Shown here: positions 37,737 to 48,632 of the stretch, in pieces
Layout of the letters: every line of letters begins with the position of its first letter
Numbering within the stretch: position 1 is the first letter of the stretch
IMG/VR virus record: IMGVR_UViG_3300032309_002624
Span: 1-64,000 of that record
From: a virus
Direction: 5' to 3' (one strand)
Length of the DNA stretch: 64,000 nucleotides
Notes under the pieces: model-generated
What the model saw: only the letters and a program-made list of their open reading frames with translations
Told to the model about the DNA's origin: nothing
Databases searched by the model: none
Translations under genes and position numbers: made by a program

Positions 37737-40700
37737 ATGGCATATCAAAATATTAATCAGTATAATTTTAGACGTTGGGGTATTAGACCTGTCAACGAAA
37801 TTACCGATATCTGTTTAGCTTCGGATGAGAAGGACTATGACCAAGAAGTCATTTTTTCACCATTATTAATAGGTGAAGAAGACGGTAATAGAATGCCATT
37901 CAAGTTTGATTTCAACAGTACAGGTACAACAATATGCCAATCAGGTTCTTGTACTTTTGATAACGATGTGATTGTTTCTGAAAACTATTGGAACCCTGAA
38001 AACATTGAACCTAATTTTTGTCCTAAGGTTACTGAGCTTTGTGATGTTGGTTTGACTGGTATTGACAACGGTCTTGTCAAAAAAATGTCAGGTGAAACCA
38101 TAGAAATTACAACTGGACTTTATACAAACAATTCTGACAAATATAGTAGATACAAATACGATAGGAGAATGAAACTTCATCCTATCACAGGATTTACAAC
38201 TACTGAGAATAGATTGTGGAATGACAATTCGTATAACTACAATTTAAACTACGCAACCGATGGTGGAGATGTAGGATATTTCGCAAGATTAAACGGTGGA
38301 TTCTTCCAAGGTTTCTATAAAATACCTGGATATGATTATCAAGTATTCCCACAGAGAATGCCTTTAGGTTGGACTGCTGAGTTCATGTTAAGATATAGAT
38401 GGACTGGTGATACAAGCGTCGGATTGAACGACAGATACCCTGACAATAAAGGTACGTTCTTCTACATGGGTTCAAGAGCTGAGAATAAGTTCTACCACTA
38501 TGCGGATGGTGAACCAAAACAAGATACAGGATATACAAGAGTAACATCAGGTTTGACCTGTATGGAAACTTGTGGATGTGCAAGTTCTGCAAACACAGCG
38601 TCGACTTGTCTTCAGGTTTATCAAATATCGGGGGGGACTTCAACAAACTGTAACTGTGGATGTCCTTGTAATTGTACTGTCAATGCCAAATATGCGGAGA
38701 AAGACCCATTGTATGACGGAGTATCAAACGGATTATCATTAAGGTTAAGTGGAGACACAGGTAGTCCAAGATTATGTATTAAGACATATAGAATAACTGG
38801 TGGATGTGAGACAAGTGGTACCTGTTTTACAGGTTTAACTTATGCAACAGGAACGTCAGTTACTGAGTGGTGTTCAACAAGAGGAATTTTTGATGATTGT
38901 AAAAACACACCATATATTAATGTTGAGCACTGGGTCCAAATAGATGCCGTATTCCAAAGAAATCAATGGTTGGATACATGTGACCTTTACGAAAAGGGTG
39001 GGTTAGGTTTAATTGTTGATACAATTTATACTGCCACGCCAGCAAACAATAGTGTTAGTTTAATAGAACCTCCACTAACACACGAATTGCCTTATGACCC
39101 GGCAACAACTGAGATTGTAACTTTCAATGACAACTGGACTGAAGAAATAAAATATAGATTGGGTACCCTGAAACTTTACGTTAACGGAAAGTTATTCATG
39201 GTTGCTGAAAATTTTGAAGAGATAATTCCGAGGTTATTAGATGTACAGAGAGAAAAACAAATCGGTGTCGGATATAACATATCGATAGGGGGTGGTACAC
39301 AAGGGTTAAAAGATAACTTGACGTTCTCGGGAGGATGTCCATCATCAGTTGATGATATTATATATCAACAAGACCCTGAGTGTTTAACAACACACGACTT
39401 AGACAATACAATCTATTCAGGTTTAACAACTCATATTAAGTTAGAGGAGTATTTTGGTGGAAGTATGATTGGTGACATCAGCGCATTTAGAATGTACACT
39501 GAACCACTCAACGCATCACAGATTAGACACAACTTTAGAATATTAAAAAATAGATACAATCTATTAGACCCTAACTGTATTAACTGTACAATCATTGTTC
39601 CTAATAATGACTTATATTACCTTTCACTACCTTGTAATGATTTGGGTTATACTTTATATCCATGTCCAACACCTACACCAACGGTTACATCAACAGTTAC
39701 TCCGACAGTTACTGAAACACCAACTAATACACCTACACAAACAACTACTGAAACTCCCACACCAACACCAACGTTTGTACCATTGAATTTAGAACTTTTT
39801 GCAGAGTATACCGCAGGTTCTATAATTGCGTCTTACACTTTATTATTAAACCGTCCATATGGTGAAGAAATAAATATCACTTTCGAAAATGTTCTAAATG
39901 TTTATAGCGGGTCTCCAATTACAATATTTACTGGAGTTACGGTGAGTTCAGGTGGTTTATCAGGGCAAACTATTGTTACAATAGATGAAGATTATGACAA
40001 CTATACCGGAGTACCATTTTTTAGTCAATTATCAGGAACTCCAAGCGGAAGTACTTATGAGATATTTGTAATCCCACCAACCCCTACACCTACACCTACA
40101 AATACTGAAACACCGACACCAACAGTTACACCTACAAATACTGAGACACCAACACAAACAGTTACACCTACAAATACTGAGACAACAACTCAGACAGTGA
40201 CTCCAACTAACACTGAGACACCAACACAAACACCAACTAATACTCCAACTCAAACTGCAACTCCATCCACAACGGCAACTGTTGGATTGACTCCGACTGC
40301 GACAGAGACACAAACACCAACTCCAACCGAAACTCCTACCAACACTCCTACTAACACAGAAACGCCTACAAATACACCAAGTGAAACTCCGACCGAAACT
40401 CCTACTAATACTCCAAGTGAAACTCCTACAAACACTCCTACAAACACAGAAACTCCTACAAACACACCAACTGTAACACCTACAACATTTACAGGATTTA
40501 CGGTAACCATTTCAGAAGTGGGTCCTGATGTGATTTGGAATGGGTCAGGAATTTTTAACTTAACCTCATTATCATTAATGGGAACCCAAGTCACAGGAGC
40601 CGGATATAACGCAAGTTTAGGGGTTTGGGGAATTGGACCTGGAACCACACTACAACAATATAGTGGAGAAACCTTTACGTATCCCGCAAGTTTTGGTACA

Positions 40701-46963: not shown

Positions 46964-48632
46964 CATAACTTTAGTAACAGGCATTTGGGATATCGGTAGA
47001 GGAGAATTGACTGAAGGTTGGAGTAGGTCATTCCAACATTATTTAGATAAATTTGAACAACTATTACAAGTTGAGGAAAATTTAATAATCTTTGGTGATG
47101 AGGAATTAAAAGATTTCGTATTTCAACACAGAAAACCTGAGACCACTCAGTTTATAACAAGGCCGTTGAGTTGGTTTACCAACTCAGAATTTTTTCCTAT
47201 GATACAAAAAATCAGAACCAACCCTGACTGGTACAATTTGTCTGGTTGGTTAAAGGAATCGACACAGGGTAGATTGGAAAACTACAATCCTTTAGTGATG
47301 TCTAAAATGTTTTTGTTACATGATGCCAAAATTATGGACCAGTTTAATTCGGAATACATGTTTTGGATTGATGGTGGATTAACAAATACTGTTCATCCAG
47401 GTTATTTCACCCATGATAAAGTATTGAATAAACTAACAAAATATATTTCTAAGTTTTCTTTTATCTGTTTTCCTTATGGAGCTGAAAGGGAAATACACGG
47501 ATTTGAATACAATCAACTTAATTTAATTGCGGGTGCGAAGGTAGACAAAGTGGCCCGAGGAGGTTTTTTTGGTGGTCCAAAAAGTTCTATTGCTGACATG
47601 AACGGAATATATTATGGTCTACTCAAAAGTACTTTACAAGATGGATATATGGGTACTGAGGAATCTATTTTCAGTATTATGTCATATAAACATTCAGATT
47701 TAATTAACTATTTTGAGATTGAACCAAATGGTTTAGTTGGTAAGTTTTTCGAGGATTTGAAAAATGACAACTTAAAAGTAAAAAATGAAAGTACTGTAAA
47801 GGTTGTAAACAATTTAGATACCAATAAAGTTGGTTTATACGTAATCACATTCAATAGTCCTAAACAGTTTAGGACCTTAATTGATTCAATGTTAGAGTAC
47901 GATAAAGATTATTTAAATAAAACAACTAAGTTTTTATTGGATAATTCAAGCGATTTATCGACAACCGAACAATATACAGCAATATGTGAAGAATATGGAT
48001 TCGAACATATTAAGAAAGATAATTTAGGTATTTGTGGTGGTAGACAATGGATTGCAGAACATTTTGAAAATGAAACTGATTTAGATTATTATCTTTTCTT
48101 CGAAGACGATATGTTCTTCTATCCTCATGAAGGACATGTGTGTAGAAATGGATTCAATAGATACGTTCCGAACTTATATTCTAAATCTTTGGAAATCATC
48201 AAAAAAGAAAATTTTGATTTTTTAAAGTTAAACTACAGCGAATTTTACGGTGATAACGGAACTCAGTGGTCTTGGTACAATGTACCTCAACATGTAAGAA
48301 GTGAGTTTTGGCCCGACAAACCAAGATTACCTGAAATGGGTTTAGACCCTAATGCACCAAAAACTGAATTTAGTGCGGTATTATCACATAAAGGTTTACC
48401 ATATGCTGTAGGTGAGGTTTACTATTGTAACTGGCCACAAATAGTTAGTAGAACGGGAAACAAGAAAATGTTTTTAGATACAACATGGGCTCACCCATTT
48501 GAACAAACATGGATGAGTCATATGTATCAATTGGTGAAAAAGGACGAATTGTATCCTGGATTATTACTGTTAACACCAACAGAACACGACAGATTCGAAC
48601 ATTACGATAGGGGGCTTCGTAAAGAGTCATAA
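46956..48632 (+). CDS. HtrL/YibB-like domain fused to a GT-A domain
   Basis: TLVTGIWDIGR, YNPLVMSK, FWIDGG, GGFFGG, GTEESI; second half DNLGICGGR, FFEDDM. Confidence 0.75.
   Translation: MSNITLVTGIWDIGRGELTEGWSRSFQHYLDKFEQLLQVEENLIIFGDEELKDFVFQHRKPETTQFITRPLSWFTNSEFFPMIQKIRTNPDWYNLSGWLKESTQGRLENYNPLVMSKMFLLHDAKIMDQFNSEYMFWIDGGLTNTVHPGYFTHDKVLNKLTKYISKFSFICFPYGAEREIHGFEYNQLNLIAGAKVDKVARGGFFGGPKSSIADMNGIYYGLLKSTLQDGYMGTEESIFSIMSYKHSDLINYFEIEPNGLVGKFFEDLKNDNLKVKNESTVKVVNNLDTNKVGLYVITFNSPKQFRTLIDSMLEYDKDYLNKTTKFLLDNSSDLSTTEQYTAICEEYGFEHIKKDNLGICGGRQWIAEHFENETDLDYYLFFEDDMFFYPHEGHVCRNGFNRYVPNLYSKSLEIIKKENFDFLKLNYSEFYGDNGTQWSWYNVPQHVRSEFWPDKPRLPEMGLDPNAPKTEFSAVLSHKGLPYAVGEVYYCNWPQIVSRTGNKKMFLDTTWAHPFEQTWMSHMYQLVKKDELYPGLLLLTPTEHDRFEHYDRGLRKES

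Follow-up and report, generated by a model that had tools for sequence, protein, structure and literature searches.

A GT60-type glycosyltransferase operon adjoins Thr/Pro-tract genes in a freshwater jumbo myovirus and may glycosylate the phage's own appendage proteins

Background

The GT60 glycosyltransferases studied to date transfer alpha-GlcNAc onto Thr residues of Thr/Pro-rich mucins, are Mn-dependent and accept the peptide KPPTTTTTTTTKPP (PMC3769586; PMC8724618). They differ from GT27 enzymes by the absence of a C-terminal ricin-type lectin domain (PMC8724618). Protist members of the family (T. cruzi TcOGNT-2, Dictyostelium Gnt2 and Gnt1) act on Thr in Thr/Pro-rich mucin tracts or on hydroxyproline, and Gnt1, which modifies the Skp1 hydroxyproline, is cytoplasmic. 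Pro/Thr-rich spacers also separate the modules of secreted cellulases, where O-glycans extend the linker and shield it from proteases; in that case, unrelated mannosyltransferases add the sugars while the enzyme is being secreted.

Virus-encoded soluble glycosyltransferases act on the viruses' own structural proteins, without host secretory machinery, in mycobacteriophages, chloroviruses and mimiviruses. In giant viruses, capsid or fibril proteins are modified and large clusters of sugar-nucleotide enzymes accompany the glycosyltransferases; in mycobacteriophages, as Freeman et al. 2023 are cited in PMC12619734, the targets are capsid and tail-tube C-termini. The large aquatic phages termed 'moraphage' are described as carrying four core glycosyltransferase groups, with no mention of Thr/Pro tracts or GT60 (PMC12619734).

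Here, a locus from an uncultured and very abundant freshwater jumbo myovirus (~320 kb) was compared with these systems. The window, that is, the whole stretch of DNA analysed, comprised 64 kb (IMGVR_UViG_3300032309_002624, positions 1 to 64,000). The closest DNA polymerase among cultured relatives is only 23–26% identical. An initial annotation had stated that no module of Thr/Pro substrate plus GT60 was known in tailed phages, and the literature search agreed, as it yielded no account of tailed phages with GT60 or with Thr/Pro tract acceptors.

Results

Thr/Ser+Pro tracts were confined to four ORFs within 37737–44005 by a sliding-window scan of the 64-kb window in six frames, which recovered the seven tracts in four consecutive genes, and the ORF coordinates, of the initial annotation. 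The tracts total 484 aa (44% Thr, 24% Pro and 7% Ser; Ser+Thr ~50%). Since Ser or Thr recurs at +2 after 72–94% of the tract Ser/Thr residues, they are better described as (T-x)n than as plain TP, and since their repeats are degenerate in DNA (64–88% matches), fresh slippage is not their source.

All four genes lie on the + strand. The first (37737..41813) encodes a 1358-aa modular protein with three tracts (641–682, 777–918 and 1067–1141) between small domains and a C-terminal LamG domain (residues 1187–1345; Pfam Laminin_G_3, E 1.7e-15) in a region matching phrog_8510 'virion structural protein'; LamG domains in the plural had been noted in this protein, of which the C-terminal one was confirmed and a second, N-terminal one is only a lead. 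The N-terminal 640 aa are 72–91% identical in 36 related loci, and the distal domains are seldom shared. The second gene (41817..42383) begins 3 nt past the stop of the first and encodes a 188-aa protein with a ~63-aa Cys-containing N-domain, one tract (64–108) and a C-terminal domain. The 99-aa third protein (42417..42716) consists of a ~63-aa N-domain and a Thr/Pro tail (64–99) that reaches the stop codon. The fourth protein (42788..44005; 405 aa) comprises a 66-aa N-domain, a tract (66–170), a middle domain, a second tract (252–290) and a C-terminal beta-rich domain; its N-domain was found in 66 of 80 related loci (median 71% identity) and its distal domains in only 5–18.

The motif TATTTAT, which resembles a late-type promoter, is located at 37721..37727 (+ strand), ~10 nt 5' of the first Thr/Pro gene; the third and fourth genes are preceded by further copies, which start at 42406 and 42762. 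Three of the four Thr/Pro genes have the motif 11–26 nt ahead of them, and copies ≤45 nt away also precede the genes for tail sheath (59310), tail tube (63466) and an adaptor-like protein (52173), in keeping with the late-type label that the Thr/Pro genes had been given. Of the 32 copies in the window, 13 precede a gene start in sense orientation by ≤45 nt. TATTTAT is absent before the enzyme operon, and a strong intrinsic-terminator-like hairpin with a T-run (44030..44064, + strand; 11 pairs, 6 of them G-C) separates the 405-aa gene from the GT60 gene. Because of this terminator, the Thr/Pro genes and the enzymes are not read as one operon but are, as predicted from sequence, separate transcription units. 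The four enzyme genes overlap start-to-stop (at 45346, 46082–46092 and 46956–46963); the coupled four-enzyme operon described as following the tract genes directly therefore stands in its coupling and its adjacency, with a terminator intervening.

The first operon gene (44084..45346, + strand) encodes a 420-aa protein with a predicted GT-A catalytic domain (1–330) followed by a ~90-aa C-terminal beta domain (~320–415), and no Pfam ricin match was obtained in it. The product matched PF11397 with 225.8 bits (cut-off 21; E 1.4e-66; profile positions 2–44 and 93–351 of 352) and phrog_24687 at E 7e-165. A putative metal motif, DxH plus a distal His, is formed by D92-S93-H94 and H229, of which D92, H94 and H229 are invariant in 39 homologues (35–49% identity). 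PDB searches by sequence, with the protein and with the 39-sequence profile, gave no usable match, so a fold search was used. The AF2 model had a pLDDT of 95, and GT27 polypeptide GalNAc-transferases were the best matches in the fold search, ahead of GT2-type polysaccharide enzymes by 2–4 Z units. The GT60-like assignment is thereby upheld, and profile and model together support a true GT60/PF11397 member with a ppGalNAc-T-like catalytic domain.

The protein falls in the same Pfam family as the protist GT60 enzymes (226 bits) and resembles them in its GT27-related GT-A domain and its DxH plus distal His. Unlike them, it is encoded by phages and bacteria, is predicted to be soluble, has no Golgi anchor and carries the extra ~90-aa C-terminal beta domain; the putative acceptors also differ, being modular phage proteins whose tracts keep strictly to (Thr-x)n. 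Its sequence is only 10–15% identical to animal and apicomplexan GT27 enzymes, from which it also differs in giving no Pfam ricin match and in standing outside the secretory pathway.

The remaining three operon genes are likewise on the + strand. The second (45346..46092; 248 aa) matched GT25 with 36 bits (cut-off 24) over profile positions 3–42 of 199 only; its GT25-like designation thus holds for the N-terminus, with the rest of the profile unmatched. No other gene of the operon is as variable as this one, which occurs in 69 of 76 close loci (median 52% identity) and 3 of 70 distant loci. The third (46082..46963; 293 aa) is found in all 76 close loci. Its designation as HtrL/YibB-like was backed by a language-model feature search (0.97 to HtrL_YibB clusters) and not by Pfam, which gave no match; likeness to the 558-aa product of the fourth gene (46956..48632) is weak (BLASTP E 6e-5). 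That fourth protein has the composition expected of it, with Pfam HtrL_YibB at residues 3–252 (70.1 bits; cut-off 24.1) and a second GT-A domain with an invariant E383-D384-D385. Its 76 bits against the NCBIfam equivalog lie far under the cut-off of 265, so it is taken to be an HtrL_YibB family member and not a YibB orthologue. The protein resembles the bifunctional polymerases K4CP, heparosan synthase and LARGE1, and it is a conserved companion of GT60, with a homologue within a few kb in 45 of 70 distant phage loci.

Neither signal peptides nor transmembrane segments were detected in the eight proteins (19-residue hydropathy at most 1.26), as had been reported for the tract proteins with respect to signal peptides, and the four tract proteins and four enzymes are predicted, with support from sequence, to be soluble and cytoplasmic.

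A co-oriented 22-kb cluster on the − strand (12867..35032) encodes sugar-nucleotide enzymes (epimerase/dehydratase, DegT aminotransferase, hexapeptide acetyltransferase and a UDP-glucose/GDP-mannose dehydrogenase-family enzyme), FkbM and other methyltransferases, and GT2, GT10, GT11 and GT2+GT4 transferases. As with the comparable clusters of giant viruses, it could serve the supply and extension of glycans. The 64-kb window encodes no polytopic membrane protein and no flippase, polymerase or exporter.

Of the close relatives whose upstream flank measured at least 3 kb, all 52 had Thr/Pro ORFs in the locus and 50 had one directly upstream. The distant set comprised 59 non-redundant phage loci with GT60 proteins 32–71% identical. 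A Thr/Pro gene stood directly 5' of GT60 in 18 of these 59 loci, versus 28 of 945 other genes there (odds ratio 14; p = 4e-12, uncorrected for relatedness and overstating independence because the compared loci belong to related phages). In the same set, 21 Thr/Pro ORFs ended ≤1 kb upstream on the same strand, and other 1-kb bins held 0–5. The distant partner proteins had no BLAST homology to the Thr/Pro proteins of the window; their sequences were read as containing PA14-like, LamG-like or RCC1-like domains or fibre-type N-termini. These comparisons support a pairing of GT60 and Thr/Pro genes that reaches far outside this clade, with partners lacking detectable homology.

The co-occurrence and synteny expected from the initial annotation were accordingly found in part: the adjacency is enriched, and for some 19 of 46 GT60 lineages (clusters at 75% identity) the nearest 10 kb hold no Thr/Pro ORF. 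A strict TxTPTxTPT tract is missing altogether from one complete genome whose GT60 is distant (36% identical), and no matches were obtained when viral contigs were scanned with two distant homologues as single proteins. In a complete relative (G002), about ten Thr/Pro-tract genes occur at six loci and only two of them adjoin GT60, which makes adjacency a tendency and not a rule. In phage XacN1, ORF334 is a GT60 protein (46% identical) and a 3313-aa protein with TP tracts is encoded beside baseplate genes; XacN1 virions have at least two periodic-acid-Schiff-positive bands, as glycoproteins give.

In Ralstonia, Achromobacter, Paraburkholderia and Paraherbaspirillum, the GT60 gene follows TssF-TssG-TssA. 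The type VI spike proteins (VgrG) near GT60 carry C-terminal tails such as (TP)n, (TPEP)n or (PPSEE)n, which were present in 5 of 5 GT60-adjacent VgrGs versus 0 of 17 complete paralogues in five betaproteobacterial genomes. The clean bacterial signal came only from such type VI loci of isolates; on bacterial MAG contigs, high G+C confounded what little Thr/Pro adjacency there was. In Sphingobacterium and Chitinophaga, GT60 is encoded after a C39-peptidase ABC exporter, in surroundings of bacteriocin type, so the family probably has further peptide acceptors.

Discussion

The locus encodes dense Ser/Thr/Pro tracts of acceptor type together with a GT60 enzyme, the combination looked for in a mucin-type system. 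We think it rather likely that the phage sugar-coats its own Thr/Pro appendage proteins in the host cytoplasm by means of the GT60-led operon. The tract proteins would be soluble and modular, with small folded domains on (Thr-x)n/Pro tracts; the conserved N-terminal domains are probably anchors, and the variable distal domains, LamG included, would be lectin-like. Their presence in the virion is suggested by the common late motif, by the PHROG 'virion structural protein' that the LamG region matches and by the fibre-like partners in other phages. The 44084..45346 product is proposed as the priming enzyme, which, soluble and cytoplasmic as Gnt1 is, would place the first sugar on tract hydroxyls. 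From family membership, this sugar is expected to be a HexNAc, most likely alpha-linked and drawn from a UDP-sugar, with Thr/Ser or possibly hydroxyproline as acceptor. Lengthening of the glycan would then fall to the tandem GT-A enzyme and to the other two operon enzymes, which are more variable, and the transferases and sugar-nucleotide enzymes of the 22-kb cluster may join in. Glycosylation would keep the linkers of the appendage proteins extended and resistant to proteases, the same physical role as in cellulase linkers but in a system that would be wholly cytoplasmic; the initial annotation had envisaged stiff bottle-brush stalks or a glycan coat. We infer the tracts to be the GT60 substrate with some support from the recurrent adjacency in phages, the VgrG tails and the Schiff-stained XacN1 virions. 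Self-modification of structural proteins, here predicted from genes, would be shared with mycobacteriophages and giant viruses, from which the proposed tract acceptors differ; the enzyme families differ as well.

It is unlikely, in our judgement, that GT60 instead glycosylates other phage or host proteins (capsid, tail subunits or a host factor) and that the tracts are mere flexible linkers common in adjoining fibre genes. Thr/Pro linkers are often plain unglycosylated spacers in many proteins. The separate transcription of tract genes and enzymes, the position of only two of about ten G002 tract genes beside GT60, the many GT60 lineages without a tract gene within 10 kb and the bacteriocin-type contexts in Sphingobacterium and Chitinophaga would fit such other targets, as would the capsid and tail-tube C-termini that PMC12619734 cites as the known sites of phage virion glycosylation; set against this are the 14-fold positional enrichment with partners lacking detectable homology, the restriction of Ser/Thr-Pro tails to GT60-adjacent VgrGs in five genomes and the preference of characterised GT60 enzymes for Thr/Pro-rich acceptors (PMC3769586).

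Less likely still is that the operon and the 22-kb cluster make or remodel a non-protein glycan (host lipopolysaccharide, capsule, teichoic-acid-like polymer or free oligosaccharide) for host takeover or superinfection exclusion. The GT60 fold is closest to polypeptide transferases, by 2–4 Z units, although GT2-type polysaccharide enzymes come second and the tandem GT-A protein is like K4CP, heparosan synthase and LARGE1. PHROGs classes the GT60 family as 'moron, auxiliary metabolic gene and host takeover', the HtrL/YibB name derives from a lipopolysaccharide core locus and similar gene sets in cyanophages have been interpreted as cell-surface modification (PMC12801897); yet the window lacks a flippase, polymerase, exporter or polytopic membrane protein, and bacterial GT60 homologues lie in type VI and bacteriocin-export loci, not in polysaccharide loci.

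Glycosylation of phage DNA bases against restriction, T4-like or by phage GT-A DNA glycosyltransferases, is very improbable: the operon adjoins a DNA polymerase gene (in XacN1 it is near one, with a carbamoyltransferase next) and phage GT-A enzymes that hypermodify 5hmC exist, but the latter are JGT/TarP-like with R...DDD...EDY (bioRxiv 10.1101/2023.12.21.572611) and not of the DxH ppGalNAc-T type, and no route to a hydroxymethyl- or hydroxy-pyrimidine acceptor was found in three complete relatives, whose thymidylate-synthase homologue is a true ThyA (TIGR03284, 303 bits; cut-off 108) and which have no C5-cytosine methyltransferase (control search positive in 9 of 14 genomes); a TET/JBP search gave no match either (control search uninformative).

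If the tracts are glycosylated as favoured above, extremely abundant freshwater jumbo phages make mucin-like glycoproteins in the bacterial cytoplasm, with an initiator from a family so far characterised only in protists, and the glycosylated appendages could alter host recognition, particle stability and protease resistance. The module would bear on the origin of mucin-type O-glycosylation and, if real, would be a source of soluble, bacterially expressed peptide glycosyltransferases for glyco-engineering. The pairing at type VI spikes suggests that this bacterial weapon carries a modification so far overlooked. More tentatively, and with some doubt, GT60 enzymes might constitute a widespread prokaryotic system for cytoplasmic mucin-type O-glycosylation of Ser/Thr-Pro tracts on contractile-machine appendages (phage fibre-type proteins and type VI VgrG); GT27/GT60 mucin initiation, thought to be a eukaryotic invention, would in that case have radiated widely in phages and bacteria, either earlier or in parallel. 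Public data hold more than 7,000 protein clusters (90% identity) of the GT60 enzyme, and among 150 representatives there were two short cases only of its fusion to a Thr/Pro tract.

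Phage and relatives

The reading favoured here, which we consider reasonably probable as a full mechanism, is that the phage uses its GT60 operon to glycosylate its own Thr/Pro tracts. Virus-encoded glycosylation of virion proteins is known from mycobacteriophages, chloroviruses and mimiviruses. The initial annotation knew of no described module of the present kind, and a literature search agreed: in the papers and preprints searched, neither GT60/PF11397 enzymes in phages nor glycosylated Thr/Pro tracts in tailed phages were described.

The IMG/VR virus fragment is 74 kb long, 64 kb of which are covered by the window. 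Genes for the major head protein (112-1362), a 1065-aa tail sheath (59310-62507), a tail tube (63466-63954) and an adaptor-like protein identify it as a myovirus; a helicase and a family B DNA polymerase are also encoded. Compared with cultured phages, its DNA polymerase reached only 23-26% identity. Close relatives were very numerous: a viral contig scan yielded 328 loci, in the best 80 of which the GT60 gene was 85-95% identical to that of the window, and among the relatives are complete contigs of 317-326 kb, terminal repeats being present in one. A protein search returned more than 7,400 clusters at 90% identity, all metagenomic and uninformatively named. The completeness figure for the 74-kb record, labelled as the CheckV estimate, is 5%; given complete relatives of about 320 kb, the true fraction is nearer a quarter.

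Thr/Pro proteins

A six-frame scan of the whole window limited Ser/Thr plus Pro tracts to four consecutive plus-strand ORFs, 37737-41813 (1358 aa), 41817-42383 (188 aa), 42417-42716 (99 aa) and 42788-44005 (405 aa). The ORF coordinates of the initial annotation were borne out, and all seven of its tracts lie within 37737-44005. The tracts sum to 484 residues (44% Thr, 24% Pro, 7% Ser, the remainder mostly Asn, Val, Glu, Ala and Gln). Another Ser/Thr follows at the second position after 72-94% of Ser/Thr residues, so the tracts are better described as (Thr-x)n, the commonest x being Pro (TPTNTETPTPTV is a tract-type peptide). The underlying DNA repeats are degenerate (64-88% matches), so the tracts are maintained at the protein level and do not reflect recent slippage.

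As had been noted from the sequence, signal peptides were absent from the four Thr/Pro proteins; the four enzymes had none either, and no transmembrane segment was found in any of the eight. The LamG assignment also held, a Laminin_G_3 domain being found at the C-terminus of the 1358-aa protein (E 1.7e-15); the same region hit a PHROG whose annotation is virion structural protein. Across the 80 close relatives compared, the first 640 aa of this protein were 72-91% identical and the N-domains (about 65 aa) of the three smaller proteins had median identities of 63-71%; distal domains were seldom common to relatives, and gene number and size differed between phages. Such an arrangement, with a linker between a constant anchor and a variable tip, is typical of fibre or decoration proteins. 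In the complete 321-kb relative (G002), about ten Thr/Pro-tract genes were found at six loci (L167-L183; 5459-6970, 117171-118178, 180917-181633, 250558-252717 and 305341-314080). In several of them a 70-90-aa domain comes first and a tract follows immediately, hinting at a family of anchor-linker-tip proteins.

The motif TATTTAT lies 11-26 nt 5' of three of the four Thr/Pro genes (the second gene begins 3 nt past the stop of the first) and no more than 45 nt 5' of the sheath, tube and adaptor-like genes. The window has 32 copies of the motif (examples at 37721, 42406, 42762 and 48638); 13 of these are in sense and no more than 45 nt 5' of a gene start, where about 1 would be expected. TATTTAT is probably the late promoter core of the clade, and calling the Thr/Pro genes late-type is reasonable, since the motif precedes three of them as well as genes for the sheath, the tube and the adaptor-like protein. 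We infer that their products are located in the virion.

GT60 and its operon partners

Directly after the Thr/Pro genes a coupled operon had been proposed. The coupling stands, as the four enzyme genes, GT60 (44084-45346), GT25-like (45346-46092), HtrL/YibB-like (46082-46963) and tandem GT-A (46956-48632), all on the plus strand, overlap start to stop. One correction applies: a strong terminator (44030-44064, 11-pair stem plus T-run) intervenes between the last Thr/Pro gene and GT60. The operon also has no TATTTAT motif, and Thr/Pro genes and enzymes are thus neighbours in separate transcription units.

The proposed priming enzyme (420 aa) matched PF11397 with 225.8 bits (cut-off 21) and phrog_24687 with an E-value of 7e-165, and no solved structure was detectable by sequence search. 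An AlphaFold2 model built on 39 homologues (pLDDT 95) was compared using Foldseek, and the top matches were all polypeptide GalNAc-transferases; profile and structure together thus uphold the GT60/GT27 relationship. Residues D92-S-H94 and H229, invariant in the 39 homologues, make up the DxH plus distal His arrangement of this class. The modelled catalytic domain is followed by a beta domain of about 90 residues. Some family representatives (P0006, P0007, P0009, P0018 and others) are giants, spanning 1,300-2,460 aa and containing between two and four GT60 catalytic domains. The GT60 enzymes of T. cruzi and Dictyostelium transfer alpha-GlcNAc onto Thr in Thr/Pro-rich tracts, starting mucin-type O-glycans; these enzymes need Mn, and the chief difference from GT27 is that they have no ricin domain (PMC3769586; PMC8724618).

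The three genes 3' of GT60, which overlap one another start to stop, end with a 558-aa protein in which an HtrL_YibB domain is joined to a second GT-A domain whose EDD is invariant. Modelled with pLDDT 90, this protein resembles two-domain transferases such as LH3, Mimivirus R699, LARGE1, COLGALT1 and chondroitin polymerase. Of 70 distant phage loci, 45 have a homologue of it within a few kb of GT60; the genes for the GT25-like and small HtrL-like proteins occur mostly in the close clade, and the conserved core is therefore GT60 plus the tandem GT-A enzyme.

Pairing of GT60 with Thr/Pro genes

Within the close clade, a Thr/Pro ORF was found directly upstream of GT60 in 50 of the 52 loci with enough upstream flank. 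As these represent a single lineage, 80 distant viral loci (GT60 32-71% identical to that of the window) were collected and reduced to 59 by removing near-duplicates. The first 1 kb upstream of GT60 contains the ends of 21 same-strand Thr/Pro ORFs in this set; the other 1-kb bins, taken as far as 10 kb, contain 0-5 each. Counted by called genes, the 5' neighbour was a Thr/Pro gene for GT60 in 18/59 loci and for other genes of the same loci in 28/945 cases (odds ratio 14, p = 4e-12, a statistic that ignores the relatedness of the loci). The distant partners were not BLAST-similar to the window's Thr/Pro proteins, two loci excepted; by reading of their sequences their domains are of quite different kinds, namely PA14-like and LamG-like domains, RCC1-like repeats and fibre-type N-termini.

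The expected synteny was thus recovered as an enrichment, but about 19 of 46 lineages had no Thr/Pro ORF within 10 kb of GT60. Only two of the roughly ten tract genes of the 321-kb relative adjoin GT60, one 324-kb genome has no tract gene near GT60 yet many tracts elsewhere, and one complete genome with a distant GT60 had no tract by the strict pattern. The pairing is a tendency and not a rule.

The cultured phage XacN1 encodes a GT60 (ORF334) 46% identical to that of the window. About 9 kb from this gene lie two TP/SP tracts, near the C-terminus of ORF325 (L001:22189-25344), a 3313-aa protein adjoining baseplate wedge genes. As an experimental hint, at least two periodic-acid-Schiff-positive bands were seen in XacN1 virions, and the authors suggested that the phage's own transferases make these glycoproteins (PMC5852040).

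Bacterial homologues

In a scan of one genome per prokaryotic species, the GT60 family was found in chromosomes of isolates. In Ralstonia the gene comes after TssF, TssG, TssA and a fimbrial-like gene, and upstream ORFs of matching size occur in Cupriavidus, Paraburkholderia and a Neisseriaceae isolate. A VgrG spike a few kb from GT60 has a C-terminal tail made of 60-130 residues of perfect (TP)n repeat; tails of other species are (TPEP)n, (PPSEE)n, (EEPPQT)n, (SDEEPAA)n or (PPTE)n. Such betaproteobacterial type VI clusters include L244:10267-13128 and L229:13052-15535 (both minus strand) as well as L258, L260, L212, L237, L240, L245, L247, L248 and L232. When all VgrG paralogues of five GT60-bearing genomes were compared, a tail was present in 5/5 GT60-adjacent copies versus 0/17 complete others, none of which had any stretch rich in Pro plus Ser/Thr. 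Since VgrG resembles phage tail proteins and is assembled in the cytoplasm, the type VI pairing follows the same logic in a different machine.

The strongest rival, in which GT60 would act on other proteins and the tracts would be no more than linkers, is less probable than the favoured reading, since both the positional enrichment and the VgrG paralogue control speak against it.

In Sphingobacterium zeae (L227:2881-9311) and Chitinophaga oryziterrae (L263), a C39-peptidase ABC exporter and small ORFs precede the GT60-like gene, a context resembling glycosylated bacteriocin (glycocin) loci. The bacteriocin-type exporter points to peptide acceptors.

Sugar cluster and other acceptors

A 22-kb co-oriented minus-strand block (12867-35032) encodes an epimerase/dehydratase, a DegT aminotransferase, a hexapeptide acetyltransferase, a UDP-glucose/GDP-mannose dehydrogenase-family enzyme, FkbM and other methyltransferases, and at least six glycosyltransferases (GT2, GT10, GT11, GT2+GT4, phrog_7162), with PhoH, NAD synthase and dUTPase genes interspersed. 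With this set the phage could make unusual sugars and longer glycans. The sole ORF with multiple hydrophobic segments in the window, a 102-aa TTG-start ORF antisense to another gene, was rejected as a polytopic membrane protein.

That the enzymes act on host-envelope glycans is rather improbable: the window lacks membrane machinery, with no export machinery in the block and no credible polytopic membrane protein anywhere in the window, and the bacterial GT60 homologues are not in polysaccharide loci. Glycosylation of phage DNA was considered since the DNA polymerase gene directly adjoins the operon and, in XacN1, a carbamoyltransferase lies next door. It is very improbable, given that thymidylate synthase of three complete relatives passes the ThyA equivalog model (303 bits versus a cut-off of 108), that these relatives have no C5-methyltransferase, and that the GT-A enzymes described for phage DNA belong to another type, JGT/TarP-like (bioRxiv 10.1101/2023.12.21.572611). 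A TET/JBP search gave no match, with an uninformative control search.

Within the favoured reading, glycosylation of the phage's own tracts, the acceptor could be hydroxyproline instead of Thr, as it is for Dictyostelium Gnt1. Complete relatives encode, elsewhere in the genome, three PF13640 prolyl-4-hydroxylase-type 2OG-Fe(II) oxygenases (G002:C1:28772-29065, 152970-153233 and 162023-162214), and hydroxyproline could therefore serve as acceptor in the Pro-rich tracts.
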